A stretch of DNA of 64,000 nucleotides. Source: Clostridioides phage LIBA6276. How positions within the stretch are numbered: the first letter of the stretch is position 1; every line of letters starts with the position of its first letter. The position numbers are program-made. The stretch is from the sequence record MF547662.1. One strand, 5' to 3'. Shown here piece by piece: positions 27,001-42,000 of this stretch.

Positions 27001-30000
27001 TCATATATTTTACTTCCATTAAACATGTATTCTTTAAAGGTTCTTGGGTTTATTATATCTAAATTCATTGTTTTTGCTAAACTAATTATGTAATTTTTAT
27101 TAGCAATAGAATGACATAATATAAGTGCATTATTTTCATAAGCATACTTTATTAATGCAGTAGTTTTCCCACTACTTCTGTTTCCATTTATTAATTTCAT
27201 AATTATTTTTCTCCTATTAAAATATTTATTTTAATTCTATTACTACCTTGTCACCTTCATCATTAGTTACAGTTAATTCATATCTTAATTTTATCCAATC
27301 TTGAATGCCTCTAAGTATACCATCCTCATCAAAAAATGTTACATACTTTAAGTCGCTTGATGGATGCTCCTTATTAGTCCTCATATCATAAGCCATTGTC
27401 TTAATCATTAGTACCTCCTTTAAATTTAACTTCCTCCTGATTTAACAATTCTTTTAGCAATTTATTATATAGTTCTCTACTTATATACTTAAATTCTGGT
27501 TTCCCTCCTATTTGCCTAAGACCTATACTATAACTATCTGTTTTTATATCATTAACTAACGTAACTTGTAAGTTACCATTTTTTAATATAACATTTCTTT
27601 CAAAATCCATAGCTCCCTCCAATTAAATATTATTTTACTCTTTCATTATACTTACCTCTTAGGTAATGTAAATCTTTCCATGCCCTATCAAACTTACTAT
27701 CTCTTTTAAATATGTATTTTCCTTCTTCATTTTTTGTATATTCAAATCCTAACCAGACTAAAAAATCAGCAACATTTCTATAATTAACAATTCTTGTCTT
27801 TTCCATTTTATAATTCTTCCTCCAATTTGTTTATTCTGCATCATATATTTTCATATCAATTTTATTTGTCTTAGGATGTACTTTTTCAAAATCTGTATCT
27901 ATTTCAAATTTAGGTCTAAAATCACCATCTCCATCTGAGTAAATACCTACTATTTTACTAGAACCTACATCTCCTAAATTTTCCATCATTTTAAGCATAG
28001 AACAAAAATCATTAATCCATCTTTCTTCCATTTTAATTTTTATTGTTATTTCTTTTTCCATAATATACTCCTTCTTTTTTAAAAACGTTTCTTTCTATAT
28101 GATTTAATGTTTAATCCATAATATTCATCAACTGTAGTTATGCTTTTATAATCATCTCTATTTTTTACTTCATTTAATAATTCAATTATAGTTGACATAT
28201 CCTTATATGTTAATTTAGAGTTTATATTCCAATCATGAAATAAGTTATTTATAGATTCAATATGCATGTTTCGTATATCTATTGTATCTCTTCTTTTATT
28301 TTCTTCAATTATCTCAATTATTTTAGCAGTACATTTTTCGCATACTGGAGTAGAAACAAATAACTTATCATATACATCACATTTATTACTATTTGTTTTA
28401 CAAAATGCACATTCTTCCCATTCTTCACTATAATGTCCCATTTAATCATCTCCTTAATTATTTTTTATATTCCCATTCATCAAATTCTTCTTTATCTTCA
28501 TAAGCACACATTTCTGACCAACCACAATCACAATGTAGTGGTTCATAGCAAAATCCTACGCCTACATCTATACCATCTGCATAAGCAATCCCTCCACATC
28601 TAAAACTCATACACATCACTCCTTCTTAATTTTATTTAAATCTTTGAATCTTAATATCTTGTCTTAGATGTTCTACCATATTGACTATTTCTTTTTCTGA
28701 ATATTCCTTTCCATATATTGTATCCATATAAAATTGAAATTGCTCTTTGTCATAATGAACAAATCCTATCATATACATTATTAAACCTATCTGACTATCA
28801 TCTAATCTCATAATTACTCCTATATAACAAAATCTTAATTCTAATCATTTATATAATTAAATTATATTTTAATATTTTTTGTCATATACAATTCCCACCT
28901 CCACCATATATTTCTTTTATTTCACTTATTTTCACTCAATATATATACTCTTTCATATTGTCCTCATTTCTTTATTATTGTAATATCATTTAAATCGATT
29001 TTACATGTATTTAAACTCTTCATATAAGAAACTATAGGTTCTACTATATTCTCAATGTCTTCATATTAGACTCTAACTATATCGCAATTATCATTTTCTT
29101 CATTATCTATAAATTCAACATAAATTAATTAGGCATATCTTTTTTTATCCTTTTGATTTTATTTAAATAACAAGATTCTAATTGCTTTTAAAATTATAAA
29201 TTGGCTTTAACACCTCCATTATCTCAATAGTATCTCCTATATTGTTTAAGATGTCCTCTATAGGTTTGTATGCTTGTGGTGCTTCATCTAGTGTTGATTG
29301 ACCTACGCAAGTTGTAAATATTTCTTTCATAGATTCTTCAAATTCATCTAAAGATATTTTTTCTTTAGCTTTTCCTCTTGATAAAATTCTTCCTGCTCCA
29401 TGTGGTGCTGAATAATTCCACTCAGAATTACCTTTACCTTTTCCTAATATAATCCCATCTCTCATGTTTACTGGAATTATTACTGTTTCATCTTTATTTG
29501 CAGAAATTGCTCCTTTTCTAAGTATTTTACTATCCATATCTATATAGTTATGAATACATTCTATAACATCACATTTAATATCTCTTATAAAATGGTCATA
29601 ATTTACATCTAGGCTGTTATATTTAAACAATATATCCGCAATTATAACCATTCTATTTGCAACAGCGTATTTTTGAGCTATACTCATATCATGTAAATAA
29701 TCTTCCATTAAATCATTTTCTAAATAACATAAATCATCATGTGGCTTATTCAATTTTCTATCACTAAGGTCTTTCAAATATTTATTTATCAAATGTTCTT
29801 TATTGTCTTTTTTTAGAGTAGATATTAAAAACTCTTTTGCATCATCATATGACTTTTTATATTTTTCAATACAATATTTTATAGCTTTGTCTTGGTAATA
29901 ATCAGCTATTTGTTTTCCTAAATTTCTTGAACCTGTATGAACAGTAAGATACATTTGACCTTTTTCACTTTTATCAACTTCTATAAAGTGATTGCCTCCA

Positions 30001-39000: not shown

Positions 39001-42000
39001 CCTTTAACTCTACATCTTTTTAAAGTATCTTTAAATCGCTCTTTAGAATTTTTATAGATACCTTCTGCAAGTAATTCACCATCATAAACTCCTACAGGCA
39101 TTTTAATAAAATCTTTCTCTATATCAATTAAATTTTCTATTATCTGTCCTTGTCTGCTAAATATTTTAATGGAGTTTTTATCTTTAACTACTATTATTCT
39201 TGTTCCATCCAATTTAGTTGTTAAAATAAATTCTTTATTACCAAGTTTATCTTTATTTTTATCATAATTTTCTGCTAACATTACCCCAAATTCTCTTACA
39301 AGTCCTGGCATTATTTTATTTGCAGTTTTTGATGTCAAGCCTAATTTAATTGATTTTGTAGCTAATCCAATTATAAATTTTTTCAATTCTTCATTTTGAT
39401 TTGCAAATACTTGTATAGTTTTAATGTCAGTGTCTCTTCCTGTGTTATTTTTAGATAGGTAATCAATCATATCATATACATTATTTAAATTACTATAATT
39501 AACACTATTTAATGACTTAGATATTTTCTTTTTAGATATTCCAGTTACAATATATGTATCTAAAAGAAATTGTAAACATTCAACAAACATTCTATTATTT
39601 TTATATTTTTCTAATATTCTCTCTTTTTCTTTTCTACTAGATGTAGCTGCTAAAATATCAAATATTTTTTTTATTTCTAAAAGCTCTTTCATTAAAAACC
39701 TCCTTGTACCTACTAGGTAAAATCACATTAAAACTATTGTTTTAACTTAATCTTCAACCTCATACCAATTCCAATCTATAAAATTTTCAAAAACATACTC
39801 CCATGCGATTTTATCTATATAATCCTCTCTCTCTTCATCAGACATATCTTTTAAATCATCATCATCTATTTCAAACTCTAACTCGCAGTCTGAGCCAACT
39901 TTATTAGTTTTAACACATACATTTACTCTCATATTTAGCACCCTCCTATTTAAACTAAACTTTTTCCCCAATCAAAACAGACTTTAACTCATTTTCTTTA
40001 TCTTTAGAATAACAGTATCCATTATAATTATTTGCACATGTTAATAATTTACATTTTATTATATACTCATTTATTATCTTACCATTATGATGTATAGACA
40101 TTATTTCAGCTAGAGTTTCTCTACAATGTCTACATGCAAAATCATAAGTTTCTTGTTGATTTATTTTTTTTAATCAAACAACAATCTTTATCTTTTAAAA
40201 ATTTATGCCTAAATATACATCTTAAACTTTTAATAAAATATCACTCCTTATATATTTATTATTCTTGTCATACTATTGTCATCATTGAAAACACTAGTTT
40301 TCATTAACAACATCTTTTAGTTTAACTCTTTCTGTATCTGAAACAATAGACCATTTTGGCTTGTACCCAAATTCATCTACCCATTTAGAAAGTACTTCAT
40401 TTACTCTATTATTTAATATATCTATGTGTTCTTTCTTTATATTAAGTATCCAACCGTCTCCAACTTCTCCATATTCATCATCTATTTCTTCTTGAACATT
40501 CCACAATATATTTTCTACATCTAAATCTGGAAGACCACCAACCTCTTCCTTTTTTCCAACATAAACATATTTCCCACATTTTTTCATTTTAGCTGCTTTA
40601 ATCGCTTCTTTTTTACTTTCATACTCATCACTATTAAAATGTTCGTCATCCCAACTATATAGCCATACATCTTTATTTTGCATTATCTCTCTCTCCTTTT
40701 ATTTATTTTCTTATATCTCTCTTAAAGTAATTCTATATTTCCCATATTTAATCTCCCCCTTACATGACACCAATTGTGAATCTACAATCCACTATCATAA
40801 GAATCTCTCTCAATGTTTTGCCTATAAATGTATGGTCACTATCATAAATATTTCCTGAAATATTTTCGCATTCAAATTTATATTCTAATAGAAACTCCCT
40901 CATTAATTCATTTGAATCTAAATCCTTTGGATTCGGAACTTCCAATTCATCCCATCCACATGGATGAATATTACATGGTACATAAATAGTGCCTCCAAAT
41001 TCCTCATGTGACAACTGGCAAATTTTTATAATAAAATCATCAGTAAGTTCATCTTTTTCACAAATCTTTCTAAAGTTGAAATCCATTCAATAACCTCCTA
41101 TTTTCTATAATTTGATTTAACTACTCAAAAATCTCCACATATTTAAATGGTATATACTCACATAACCAAACATTGTTTTCAGATAAGTAAAACTTATAAC
41201 CATTTTCATACATTTTACCTGTATTAATTTTTAAAATTACAGGTGTACCATGTCTTTTACCAACTTTAATAGCAGTATCTATATCCCTTGATAAATGTAC
41301 ATATAGTCTACTTTGTTTAATAATACCTTCATTTTTAATATTGTCTAAAAATCTAGTAGCTGTTCCATGATAAAGATATTCTGGTGGTTCTAATTCTTTC
41401 AATTCAACATCAATATTAATTGAATGTCCTTGATTTGCTCTAATCTTACTTCTATCCTCATTAAAACTGTACCTTTGCTTATTATCTTCTTTAACTATTT
41501 GCTCAAGGATTTCTATATTAATATTTCTACCAGTATTATTTATTTTTTCAATCAATTCATTAACATCTGCATATCCATAATCATCTAGTTTAATTCCAAT
41601 AATTTCTGGTTTATGTCTTAATATTAAACTTATAAAAATAGATAACTTATCTTTTTTACTCATTGACTTCACCTCATCTTCTTTAGCTAATATTTCAGCA
41701 CTATCTATACATCTCGCCACAATTTTTACATTGATACATAGTACCTAATTGTGTATTAAGTTCATATATATCTCCACCACAGTCACATTTTTTAATTCTT
41801 ATTGGATTTTTCTTCATTTTTAATCACTCCTTTTCTATTAAAATCTTGATTTTAACTTCATTATTCTTATTAATATTTAATATATTTACCTTTGCATTCT
41901 ACAATTAACCCTTCACTATTCCTATCGTTAATCCAACTTAATTTACATATCTTATTAACCTTAAAACATTTCTCTTCATTAGTTAAACATGTAGTACATT

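Follow-up and report, generated by a model that had tools for sequence, protein, structure and literature searches.

RtcB, PTH2 and Tpt1, three enzymes of RNA and translation maintenance encoded by Clostridioides phage LIBA6276, appear from sequence comparison to be loosely scattered accessory genes that form no conserved module. We regard it as moderately probable that they lie in the accessory arm of a phage-plasmid, which would have acquired them independently, along with a DNA ligase and with no obligate module between them. The window (the whole 64,000-nucleotide stretch analysed, from MF547662.1) would be the leftward arm, transcribed early and carrying accessory and replication genes, of a temperate C. 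difficile siphovirus, LIBA2945/phiCD5763-like (phiCD211-family), that is kept as a 132-kb plasmid. The enzymes would sit in a mosaic run of small genes between the lysis-lysogeny/recombinase region and the replication genes, which would hold three independently acquired, intact maintenance enzymes and a replicative DNA ligase. Their co-location would reflect a common permissive accessory region; mosaic content, independent gene loss and decay, and the absence of linkage outside the family argue against an obligate module.

The element is a familiar one. LIBA2945 (MF547663.1), a phiCD211-like phage-plasmid of 132 kb from C. difficile that is already sequenced and annotated, shows 100% identity to window positions 29000-42000 and 99.5% identity across 23000-45688; past ~45.7 kb the match to LIBA2945 turns mosaic, with, for instance, a solo Cas3b at the site where LIBA2945 has transposases, and the window flanks are mosaic in the same comparison. 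The gene set is an ordinary, already known feature, with a predicted function. The four-enzyme block is 88% coding and entirely co-directional, in DNA of 25% G+C, and its GenBank annotation lists 24 CDS, 20 of them hypothetical; the 'about 25' given in the initial annotation was a slight overcount. Neither tRNA genes nor matches to Rfam RNA families were found in the window.

Four enzymes and their predicted activities

Pfam and NCBIfam matches bear out the initial placement of RtcB, PTH2, the ligase and Tpt1 on one strand (-), and the concern that the enzymes might be catalytically dead is allayed, as every catalytic residue checked is present, including the Cys/His residues of RtcB and the R-H-R-R tetrad of Tpt1. 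The RtcB-family 3'-phosphate/5'-OH RNA ligase (29178..30431, minus strand; 417 aa; PF01139 E=4.6e-66) is predicted to be active: 18 aligned sequences all share D71, C74, N147-H148, H165, H294 and H344, which align with D95, C98, N202-H203, H234, H329 and H404 of P. horikoshii RtcB. It falls below the cut-offs of PRK09588 and of the PrfH-coupled TIGR03073 (116 bits, against a cut-off of 271.8). Its nearest relatives outside the family, at ~50% identity, are found in large phages of Bacillus, Listeria and Staphylococcus and in Clostridia; within the family, one contig has RtcB replaced, and in ES-S-0107-01 the gene carries a frameshift. The GenBank label of the LIBA2945 protein reads 'release factor H-coupled RctB family'.

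PTH2 (33089..33469, minus strand; 126 aa) is a divergent peptidyl-tRNA hydrolase that scores 54.1 bits with PF01981 (cut-off 23) and lies below the NCBIfam Pth2 equivalog cut-offs. Five aligned sequences all share its K18, D92 and T96, the counterparts of K18, D86 and T90 in S. solfataricus Pth2 (1XTY), and we predict an active enzyme here too. Two family phages lack the gene, and two family contigs have it frameshifted.

Tpt1/KptA, an NAD+-dependent RNA 2'-phosphotransferase (41121..41720, minus strand; 199 aa; PF01885 E=4.4e-47), reaches 251 bits with the NCBIfam equivalog NF002014 (cut-off 239) and matches Runella Tpt1 7KW8 with E=8.7e-51. R35-H36-R83-R138 match the R-H-R-R tetrad (R18-H19-R68-R121 in CthTpt1), an HGT motif lies at 118-120, and activity is again predicted. 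Translation probably begins at M20 (41663), for a protein of ~180 aa; the Pfam match starts at residue 23 and this shorter form is the one annotated in phiCD211. pCD1602_4 lacks Tpt1, and in one IMG/VR contig the gene is frameshifted.

The fourth enzyme (38409..39692, minus strand; 427 aa) had been counted among those acting on RNA, an identity that we reject. PF01068 and PF14743 pass, whereas PF09414 RNA_ligase stays at 21.5 bits, under its cut-off of 27; the alignment to 6RAU, an ATP-dependent DNA ligase, spans residues 9-415 (E=7e-30), with motif I K160 (KLDG), DGEL, EGVMI and LLKVK all in place. About half of the family (phiCD211, AR1086-1, pCD1602_4 and many IMG/VR relatives) retains no more than a 132-aa remnant of its N terminus. 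By these features it is a three-domain DNA ligase for replication or repair, outside any RNA-repair set.

How might such enzymes serve the phage-plasmid? During lytic growth, metal-independent RNases, the likely sources being toxins of toxin-antitoxin systems and abortive-infection effectors of the HEPN or anticodon-nuclease type, would cut tRNA, rRNA or mRNA to leave 2',3'-cyclic-phosphate and 5'-OH ends, which RtcB would join directly with GTP and Mn2+. PTH2 would remove the peptide from peptidyl-tRNA set free by stalled or broken translation complexes, such that the tRNA is recycled; Tpt1 would remove RNA 2'-phosphates with NAD+, their possible origin being a cyclic end opened by a host 2H phosphodiesterase; and the ATP-dependent ligase would seal nicked DNA during replication or repair. 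The role assigned to Tpt1 is the weakest step. RtcB sealing yields no 2'-phosphate, and Pfam searches of the region found no 2H, PNK or Rnl enzyme; an evident partner that would supply Tpt1 with substrate is therefore missing here.

Small genes between the enzymes

The three hypothetical ORFs that separate RtcB from the conserved block (30484..31884, minus strand) belong to PHROGs of unknown function, have no match in Pfam or PADLOC, and are restricted to LIBA2945-type genomes, being missing in phiCD211, AR1086-1, ES-S-0107-01 and pCD1602_4. Between them and PTH2 lie conserved small ORFs (32003..33073, minus strand) of 93 aa, 148 aa and 51 aa, the last Cys-rich and possibly a zinc ribbon; these are kept in phiCD211 and AR1086-1 and in part in ES-S-0107-01, fall in PHROGs of unknown function without a Pfam match, and the 148-aa ORF has homologues in Clostridioides only. 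Upstream of PTH2 are three further ORFs of 158, 40 and 114 aa (33505..34442, minus strand). The 158-aa ORF is essentially Clostridioides-restricted (all named matches are Clostridioides, and a few unnamed ones metagenomic), while the 114-aa ORF (34098-34442, minus strand), whose single Pfam signal is a sub-threshold DUF5847, is found together with PTH2 and RtcB in a single unrelated contig, where its homologue, at 34% identity, directly follows PTH2.

Next comes a hypervariable block of hypothetical genes (34543..38222, minus strand) without a PADLOC match; in sister phages most of it is missing, and NrdD/NrdG and IS200/IS605 elements take its place. One of its genes (36206-37216, minus strand) encodes a 336-aa member of a very large family of phage proteins, with 2597 cluster representatives at E<=1e-3 and no relative in Pfam or PDB, and another (37438-38040, minus strand) a 200-aa coiled-coil protein. 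Single-sequence AlphaFold gave poor models of both, with a pLDDT of 35 for the former and only helix 97-199 confident in the latter. The small hypothetical ORFs between ligase and Tpt1 (39747..41086, minus strand), which sister phages share in part, comprise a DUF7167 protein (39747-39971, minus strand; PF23768 E=5.5e-22) and members of PHROGs of unknown function. Across the intervening ORFs, Pfam searches gave no 2H, PNK, Rnl, Archease, Macro or NADAR match. These genes form a mosaic among sister phages and gave no functional signal, which leaves the suggestion that they are further components of a common system unsupported; by sequence they have no assignable function.

Linkage and competing readings

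Within the family the order Tpt1-ligase-PTH2-RtcB is maintained in more than 12 contigs, with PTH2 at 1.1 kb from RtcB in most members. In sister phages NrdD/NrdG, IS elements or unrelated ORFs stand in for the intervening genes. Outside the family, neither PTH2 nor Tpt1 lies within 10 kb of RtcB in any of 72 loci, neither RtcB nor Tpt1 occurs at any of 81 PTH2 loci (35 of them at least 10 kb long), and the nearest Tpt1 relatives have neither RtcB nor PTH2 within ~20 kb. The sole exception is a metagenomic contig, L007, with RtcB, PTH2 and the 114-aa homologue in rearranged order. The proposed linkage thus holds as gene order in the family, whereas beyond it Tpt1 is never linked and RtcB joins PTH2 in one further lineage only. 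RtcB and PTH2 may nonetheless be functionally coupled to some degree, since their order is kept in the family and their linkage recurs in a distant contig. Inside the one genome the clustering is marginal: three genes within 12.5 kb of a 132.5-kb circle give p ~0.027 under random placement, and an estimated p ~0.07 if only the ~80-kb non-structural arm is eligible. In other phages, the neighbours of close RtcB relatives include RNA ligases, Thg1, a CCA-adding enzyme, HAD_SAK (the 'Swiss-army-knife' phosphatase), NAD+ salvage genes, Macro and Gad2, with NAMPT, NadE, Prs, PncA, PnuC and NadR-like among the genes that give RtcB relatives elsewhere a counter-defence or RNA-repair setting.

The most reasonable assignment for RtcB and PTH2 is counter-defence or the upkeep of translation, and to that extent the initial annotation stands; its wider proposal, that RtcB, PTH2, Tpt1, the ligase and the many small ORFs are one dedicated kit against tRNA-targeting immunity, is weak, and we think it unlikely. 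The seemingly active enzymes and the order conserved in the phiCD211-like family would suit such an island, as would L007, where the RtcB-PTH2-114-aa linkage adjoins Gad2 and NAD+ salvage genes. However, the ligase is a DNA ligase and is often truncated, Tpt1 is unlinked to the others outside the family, single genes are lost independently, the clustering statistic is marginal, and the intervening ORFs are mosaic, without RNA-repair domains and, in the two cases searched, essentially Clostridioides-restricted. It is similarly doubtful that the enzymes provide general translation support or a lysogen benefit instead of lytic anti-defence, with PTH2 easing peptidyl-tRNA build-up from heavy phage translation, and RtcB and Tpt1 guarding the lysogen against RNase bacteriocins, contact-dependent toxins or the element's own toxin-antitoxin toxins. 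The element is a stable plasmid-prophage with addiction modules (PMC5786514), RtcB2-PrfH is reported to shield E. coli from colicin E3 (PMC9223846, PMC9304027), and the PTH2 relative in Enterococcus phage H1 lies amid nucleotide-metabolism genes, adjoining a tRNA array and with no defence genes beside it. Yet the enzyme genes share a long co-directional block with replication genes, which suggests early or lytic expression, and RtcB relatives elsewhere adjoin recognised anti-defence genes (NAD+ reconstitution, Gad2).

Two narrower readings strike us as highly improbable. RtcB joins DNA 3'-phosphate ends in vitro, and a three-domain DNA ligase of the same kind lies 0-7 kb from RtcB in 10 of 72 unrelated viral loci (with a 4-nt gene overlap in L034), so might the two form a two-chemistry DNA end-repair pair, one for 3'-phosphate/5'-OH breaks and the other for 3'-OH/5'-phosphate nicks? 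The simplest account of the association is that both genes lie in early replication/nucleotide-metabolism regions, as in L008; moreover, 8 kb separate the ligase from RtcB in the phiCD211 family, where the ligase is often truncated while RtcB is intact, and the other RtcB neighbours are RNA-repair enzymes. There is likewise very little chance that Tpt1 is not a repair enzyme here. Its 5'-phospho-ADP-ribosylation activity is known from the literature, no 2'-phosphate-generating enzyme is encoded in the region, and it is unlinked to RtcB outside the family. Moreover, no bacterial substrate or 2'-phosphate RNA source is known for Tpt1 (PMC6333775). Against this, the full R-H-R-R tetrad, which recognises the 2'-PO4/3'-PO4 junction, is conserved, and a capping role has no positive support.

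Comparison with known systems

The phage-plasmid reading accords with relatives already on record, and descriptions can be named for a combination to which the initial annotation could put no described module. Among the LIBA2945/phiCD5763- and phiCD211 (phiCDIF1296T)-like big plasmid-prophages, the four enzymes are annotated in LIBA2945, phiCD211 and AR1086-1, as they are in several plasmid records from C. difficile, and Ramirez-Vargas et al. [quoted passage not shown] The concept is likewise published for large phages: Iyer et al. 2021 and 2022 (PMC7824862, PMC9503650) proposed RtcB, KptA and PTH2 as an RNA-repair/ribosome-rescue counter-defence that would reseal cleaved tRNA, clear 2'-phosphates and free peptidyl-tRNA from jammed ribosomes. 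The C. difficile element shares these three families with the jumbo/large-phage sets (Iyer, Anantharaman, Krishnan, Burroughs, Aravind 2021; Iyer et al. 2022), but it is a temperate siphovirus-plasmid of 132 kb rather than a jumbo phage, and the usual partners are missing from it: 2H, cRec, PNK-HAD, Rnl1/Rnl2 and RlaP, as well as NAD+ salvage genes and large tRNA arrays.

The logic by which a phage enzyme undoes host-made tRNA breaks is common to T4 Pnkp-Rnl1, which counters the anticodon nuclease PrrC. T4 relies on a healing step, whereas RtcB would seal 3'-P or cyclic-P to 5'-OH without kinase-phosphatase healing; Pfam searches of the region found neither Pnkp nor Rnl, and we know of no PrrC-like target in C. 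difficile. The ligase aligns end to end with the Phage T7/Chlorella-virus/Prochlorococcus-type ATP-dependent DNA ligases 6RAU/6RAR (E ~1e-29), with whose nucleotidyltransferase motifs and OB domain it agrees and from which it differs in nothing notable; as a standard member of that group it should be dropped from the list of RNA-repair enzymes. The RtcB2-PrfH module likewise couples an RtcB ligase with a peptidyl-tRNA-hydrolysing factor, as RtcB and PTH2 might here; the phage element, however, carries no PrfH or release-factor homologue, and PTH2, of an unrelated fold, has free peptidyl-tRNA rather than the ribosome as its substrate.

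Identity and active sites of the four enzymes

Family profiles bear out the four enzymes that the initial annotation had placed in the interval 29178-41720, all on the minus strand: RtcB (29178-30431, 417 aa; PF01139, E=4.6e-66), a PTH2-type peptidyl-tRNA hydrolase (33089-33469, 126 aa; PF01981), an ATP-dependent ligase (38409-39692, 427 aa; PF01068 and PF14743) and Tpt1/KptA (41121-41720, 199 aa; PF01885, E=4.4e-47), the last of which also passes the NCBIfam equivalog NF002014. Active-site residues are present in each of them, and the idea that they might be catalytically dead fails for all four.

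RtcB matches PF01139 at 224.2 bits (cut-off 27) over model positions 12-425 of 426, and the features by which we judged its site, namely the Asp, Cys and three His metal ligands and the GMP-accepting His, are all present. D71, C74, N147-H148, H165, H294 and H344 are invariant in an alignment of 18 sequences (relatives at 52-89% identity), and in a profile-to-PDB alignment the same residues match the motifs by which P. horikoshii RtcB binds metal and accepts GMP. The protein is predicted to be active in the GTP/Mn2+-dependent joining of 3'-phosphate or 2',3'-cyclic-phosphate ends to 5'-OH ends. We also considered its placement as the PrfH-coupled RtcB2, and rejected it: the score against TIGR03073 is 116.1 bits for a cut-off of 271.8, with the N-terminal half alone matched, and there is no adjacent prfH, Pfam finding no release-factor domain in any ORF near RtcB. 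As the protein falls under the PRK09588 equivalog cut-off as well as that of TIGR03073, its designation in GenBank as 'release factor H-coupled' is unjustified.

PTH2 is matched over its full length by PF01981 (54.1 bits, cut-off 23) and lies under the NCBIfam archaeal equivalog cut-offs (45.5 against 126, and 34.6 against 82); it therefore belongs to a divergent subfamily. Its K18, D92 and T96 align with the active-site Lys, Asp and Thr (K18, D86 and T90) of S. solfataricus Pth2 (1XTY) and are invariant in five subfamily members. Tpt1 scores 160.9 bits against PF01885 (cut-off 26) and 251.2 against NF002014 (cut-off 239), and its Arg-His-Arg-Arg catalytic tetrad is complete, with R35, H36, R83 and R138 corresponding to R18, H19, R68 and R121 of CthTpt1 and to R16, H17, R64 and R119 of RslTpt1; an HGT NAD+ motif lies at 118-120, and the true start is probably M20.

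The ligase had been counted among the RNA-repair enzymes, a membership that we withdraw. It has a nucleotidyltransferase domain and an OB domain, matching PF01068 (53.2 bits, cut-off 26.2) and PF14743 (58.2, cut-off 28), its motif I lysine is K160 (KLDG), and it aligns over its full length, from residue 9 to 415, with 6RAU, an ATP-dependent DNA ligase of known structure (E=7e-30); the score against the RNA_ligase family PF09414 is 21.5 bits, under the cut-off of 27. These alignments mark it as a DNA ligase, whose most likely place is in DNA replication and repair.

Linkage within and outside the phiCD211-like family

G+C content is 23-29% across the whole window, and the minus strand holds almost every gene from ~0.3 to 57.7 kb; the interval of the four enzymes is 88% coding, with 20 of its 24 GenBank CDS hypothetical. 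Positions 29000-42000 are 100% identical to LIBA2945 (MF547663.1) and positions 23000-45688 are 99.5% identical, after which (45688-47067 and on to 64000) come a 675-nt insertion and a remaining 18 kb that LIBA2945 covers to only 55%. By sequence, the window is a mosaic sibling of LIBA2945 and not strictly that phage. LIBA2945/phiCD5763 is itself a member of the phiCD211/phiCDIF1296T-like 'big' C. difficile siphoviruses, circular plasmids of ~130 kb, and the records of LIBA2945, phiCD211, AR1086-1 and several C. difficile plasmids already carry annotations for the four enzymes. Scans of the window for promoters and terminators did no better than on shuffled sequence, and neither RNA families (Rfam) nor tRNA genes (ARAGORN) were detected in it. 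A replication module (6526-18275 and 8848-9987, minus strand) follows the accessory region, with a ribonucleotide reductase carrying a TSCPD domain, a PolIII-alpha-type polymerase, a DHH phosphoesterase, a DnaB-like helicase and a DndB-like protein, which is associated with DNA sulphur modification.

More than 12 family genomes or contigs share the gene order Tpt1-ligase-PTH2-RtcB. The surroundings are variable: NrdD/NrdG and IS200/IS605 elements replace the window's ORF set in phiCD211 and AR1086-1, and a 1.4-kb insertion with three ORFs separates RtcB from the next conserved gene in the window. Directly downstream of rtcB, where the window has small hypothetical ORFs, AR1086-1 has an annotated NrnB-type oligoribonuclease (5101-6003 of that locus, L003). 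Nor are the enzymes themselves constant. ES-S-0107-01 and pCD1602_4 lack PTH2, and pCD1602_4 lacks Tpt1 as well; frameshifts interrupt PTH2 in two IMG/VR contigs, Tpt1 in one contig and RtcB in ES-S-0107-01, and in draft assemblies such frameshifts may be sequencing errors. One contig has unrelated DNA in place of RtcB, and about half of the family retains no more of the ligase than its N-terminal 132 aa. The four enzymes have thus been lost independently in the family, and the DNA between and around them is mosaic.

Outside the family, neither PTH2 nor Tpt1 lies within 10 kb of RtcB in any of 72 IMG/VR loci (RtcB 46-53% identical; 48 loci at least 15 kb long), and none of 81 genome or metagenome loci of PTH2, from this subfamily or more distant, has RtcB or Tpt1 (35 of them span 10 kb or more). 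At the two closest Tpt1 loci outside Clostridioides, neither RtcB nor PTH2 lies within ~20 kb, and in Enterococcus phage H1 a PTH2 relative sits among dihydrofolate reductase, thymidylate synthase and NrdD/G, adjoining a tRNA array. Only one contig departs from this pattern, the 15-kb Logan contig L007, in which RtcB (68% identity) is followed by four small ORFs and then PTH2 (45%), with a gap of 996 nt between the two enzymes and a 34%-identical homologue of the window's 114-aa ORF (34098-34442) after PTH2; its gene order is unlike the window's, and PnuC, a NadR-like gene and Gad2 adjoin. The chance of finding three genes inside 12.5 kb of this one genome is ~0.03-0.07. Taken together, the missing linkage outside the family, the independent losses and this chance speak largely against the kit proposed in the initial annotation, the enzymes being, for the most part, not linked; as a co-inherited operon or module they have no counterpart in independent lineages, save for RtcB and PTH2 in the Logan contig. 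On this comparison of loci, the juxtaposition of RtcB, PTH2 and Tpt1 is specific to this lineage and belongs to a permissive accessory region, and a genuine affinity is possible for RtcB and PTH2 only.

Neighbouring genes, small ORFs and a solo Cas3

To what company do the relatives of this RtcB belong? When genes up to 3 kb from members of this RtcB clade were clustered across the other loci, terminase and portal genes came out as recurrent neighbours, marking a module boundary, and a three-domain ATP-dependent DNA ligase of the window's kind recurs beside RtcB relatives in 10 of the 72 loci. The distance is 0-7 kb in these (L034, 9998-12492; L029, L031, L039, L040, L044, L045, L047, L049 and L008), which come from about five unrelated lineages of uncultured phages; L034 shows a 4-nt overlap of ligase and RtcB. 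Such proximity may reflect a joint role in nucleic-acid end repair, or merely a common early-gene location.

The other recurrent neighbours include NAMPT, NAD synthase, PRPP synthetase-like and nicotinamidase-like proteins, that is NAD+ salvage, as well as a Macro domain and DUF3990, with RNA ligases, Thg1, a CCA-adding-type nucleotidyltransferase and a HAD 'Swiss-army-knife' RNA-repair phosphatase as one-off occurrences. Loci with NAD+ salvage (PnuC and NadR-like genes included), Macro or the anti-Gabija Gad2 were seen at L045 11421-12911, L047 1207-1896, 7268-7723 and 7705-8478, L049 9166-9978 and L007 9391-13898. Judging by these gene contents, the surroundings of RtcB relatives elsewhere amount to an anti-defence neighbourhood; in the window, tblastn found no homologues of NAD+ salvage genes, Macro or Gad2. 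RtcB has been described as part of phage RNA repair and of NAD+-centred counter-defence (PMC7824862, PMC9503650), a picture that these neighbours fit, and no published experiment on phage RtcB as counter-defence surfaced in our literature searches.

The small ORFs, which had been proposed as further repair components, gained nothing in support from Pfam, PHROGs and PADLOC scans or from homologue searches. Across ~30 ORFs between 28 and 44 kb, scanned with Pfam, NCBIfam, PHROGs and PADLOC, the Pfam/NCBIfam matches were DUF7167 (39747-39971), YopX (42074-42487, just outside the interval) and weak zinc ribbons; every PHROG match was of 'unknown function', and PADLOC gave no match. The ORFs best conserved alongside RtcB and PTH2 encode 148 and 158 aa and have named homologues in Clostridioides alone, the 158-aa protein having a few more distant matches, all metagenomic. 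A 336-aa protein (36206-37216, minus strand) is missing from the sister phages and belongs to an uncharacterised phage family of 2597 representatives (50% clustering, E<=1e-3), whose N-terminal ~185 aa are conserved, many Gly, Trp and Arg residues being invariant; profile searches gave no PDB or Pfam relative, and single-sequence AlphaFold2 a pLDDT of 35. For a 200-aa protein (37438-38040, minus strand) the same method gave a pLDDT of 64, confident for the C-terminal coiled coil alone (100 residues). Its N-terminal region, which begins 'NVTNHALRRYIER', shows an alpha-alpha-beta-beta-beta pattern at low model confidence, and might resemble, in its 'NHALRRYIER' stretch, RelE/DUF4258-like RNase toxins.

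Further along, at 47123-49519 (minus strand), the window carries a stand-alone, full-length type I-B Cas3 of 798 aa, with a PADLOC Cas3b match of 1102 bits (positions 4-733 of 734) and the Pfam domains Cas3_HD and Cas3-like_C_2. It is the only cas gene detected in the window, which showed no CRISPR array either; near cas3 an array was sought with repeat finders and with a C. difficile repeat sequence as query. Transposases occupy the position of cas3 in LIBA2945, and the same cas3 is found in ES-S-0107-01 and several C. difficile plasmids (PGAP-annotated). On a phage-plasmid whose host has a type I-B system, such a solo Cas3 could be a hijacking or an interference device. Nearby, a 122-aa ORF (45749-46117, minus strand) partially matches two candidate defence proteins of PADLOC, PDC-S23 and PDC-M59B, in their C-terminal part (E ~1e-11).

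Possible roles and comparison with known systems

The enzyme families and their intact catalytic residues are established, and from them we infer the roles that follow. PTH2 would recycle peptidyl-tRNA, or N-blocked aminoacyl-tRNA, building up when translation is damaged or overloaded, and Tpt1 would remove 2'-phosphates using NAD+. Tpt1 is the weakest link of this scheme: RtcB ligation leaves no 2'-phosphate and no 2H/PNK/Rnl pathway is encoded here (Pfam found no 2H, PNK or RNA-ligase domains in the ORFs of 28-44 kb); in cellular bacteria, too, the substrate of Tpt1 is an acknowledged riddle (PMC6333775).

Perhaps a smaller unit hides within the juxtaposition. RtcB and PTH2 lie ~1 kb apart in most phiCD211-like genomes, the 114-aa protein follows PTH2 both in that family and in L007, and the pairing recurs independently just once, in rearranged order, in this distantly related uncultured phage. 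By analogy with PrfH-RtcB2, the bacterial ribosome rescue-and-repair module, RtcB and the divergent PTH2, possibly with the 114-aa protein, might form a phage 'rescue-and-repair' pair, a reading that we consider unlikely. RNase attack on tRNA or 16S rRNA would stall ribosomes, PTH2 would clear the released peptidyl-tRNA, and RtcB would reseal the RNA. We continue to prefer the lineage-specific juxtaposition; the lack of a conserved module, and the finding that the ligase is a DNA ligase, guard against over-reading the co-occurrence of annotations. Sequence, annotation, co-occurrence in the family and functional hypothesis had each been made public before. Nevertheless, clinical C. difficile commonly carries phiCD211-like phage-plasmids, which offer a temperate Gram-positive system in which to study the predicted action of RtcB, PTH2 and KptA against RNA-targeting immunity, one equally suited to seeking the in vivo substrate of bacterial-type Tpt1, that long-standing riddle.

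Among known systems, T4-type healing-and-sealing (Pnkp with Rnl1/Rnl2) differs in its composition, its kinase-phosphatase and ATP-dependent RNA ligase domains being absent from the ORFs scanned here; the phage RtcB would instead directly reseal the RNA ends left by metal-independent RNases.
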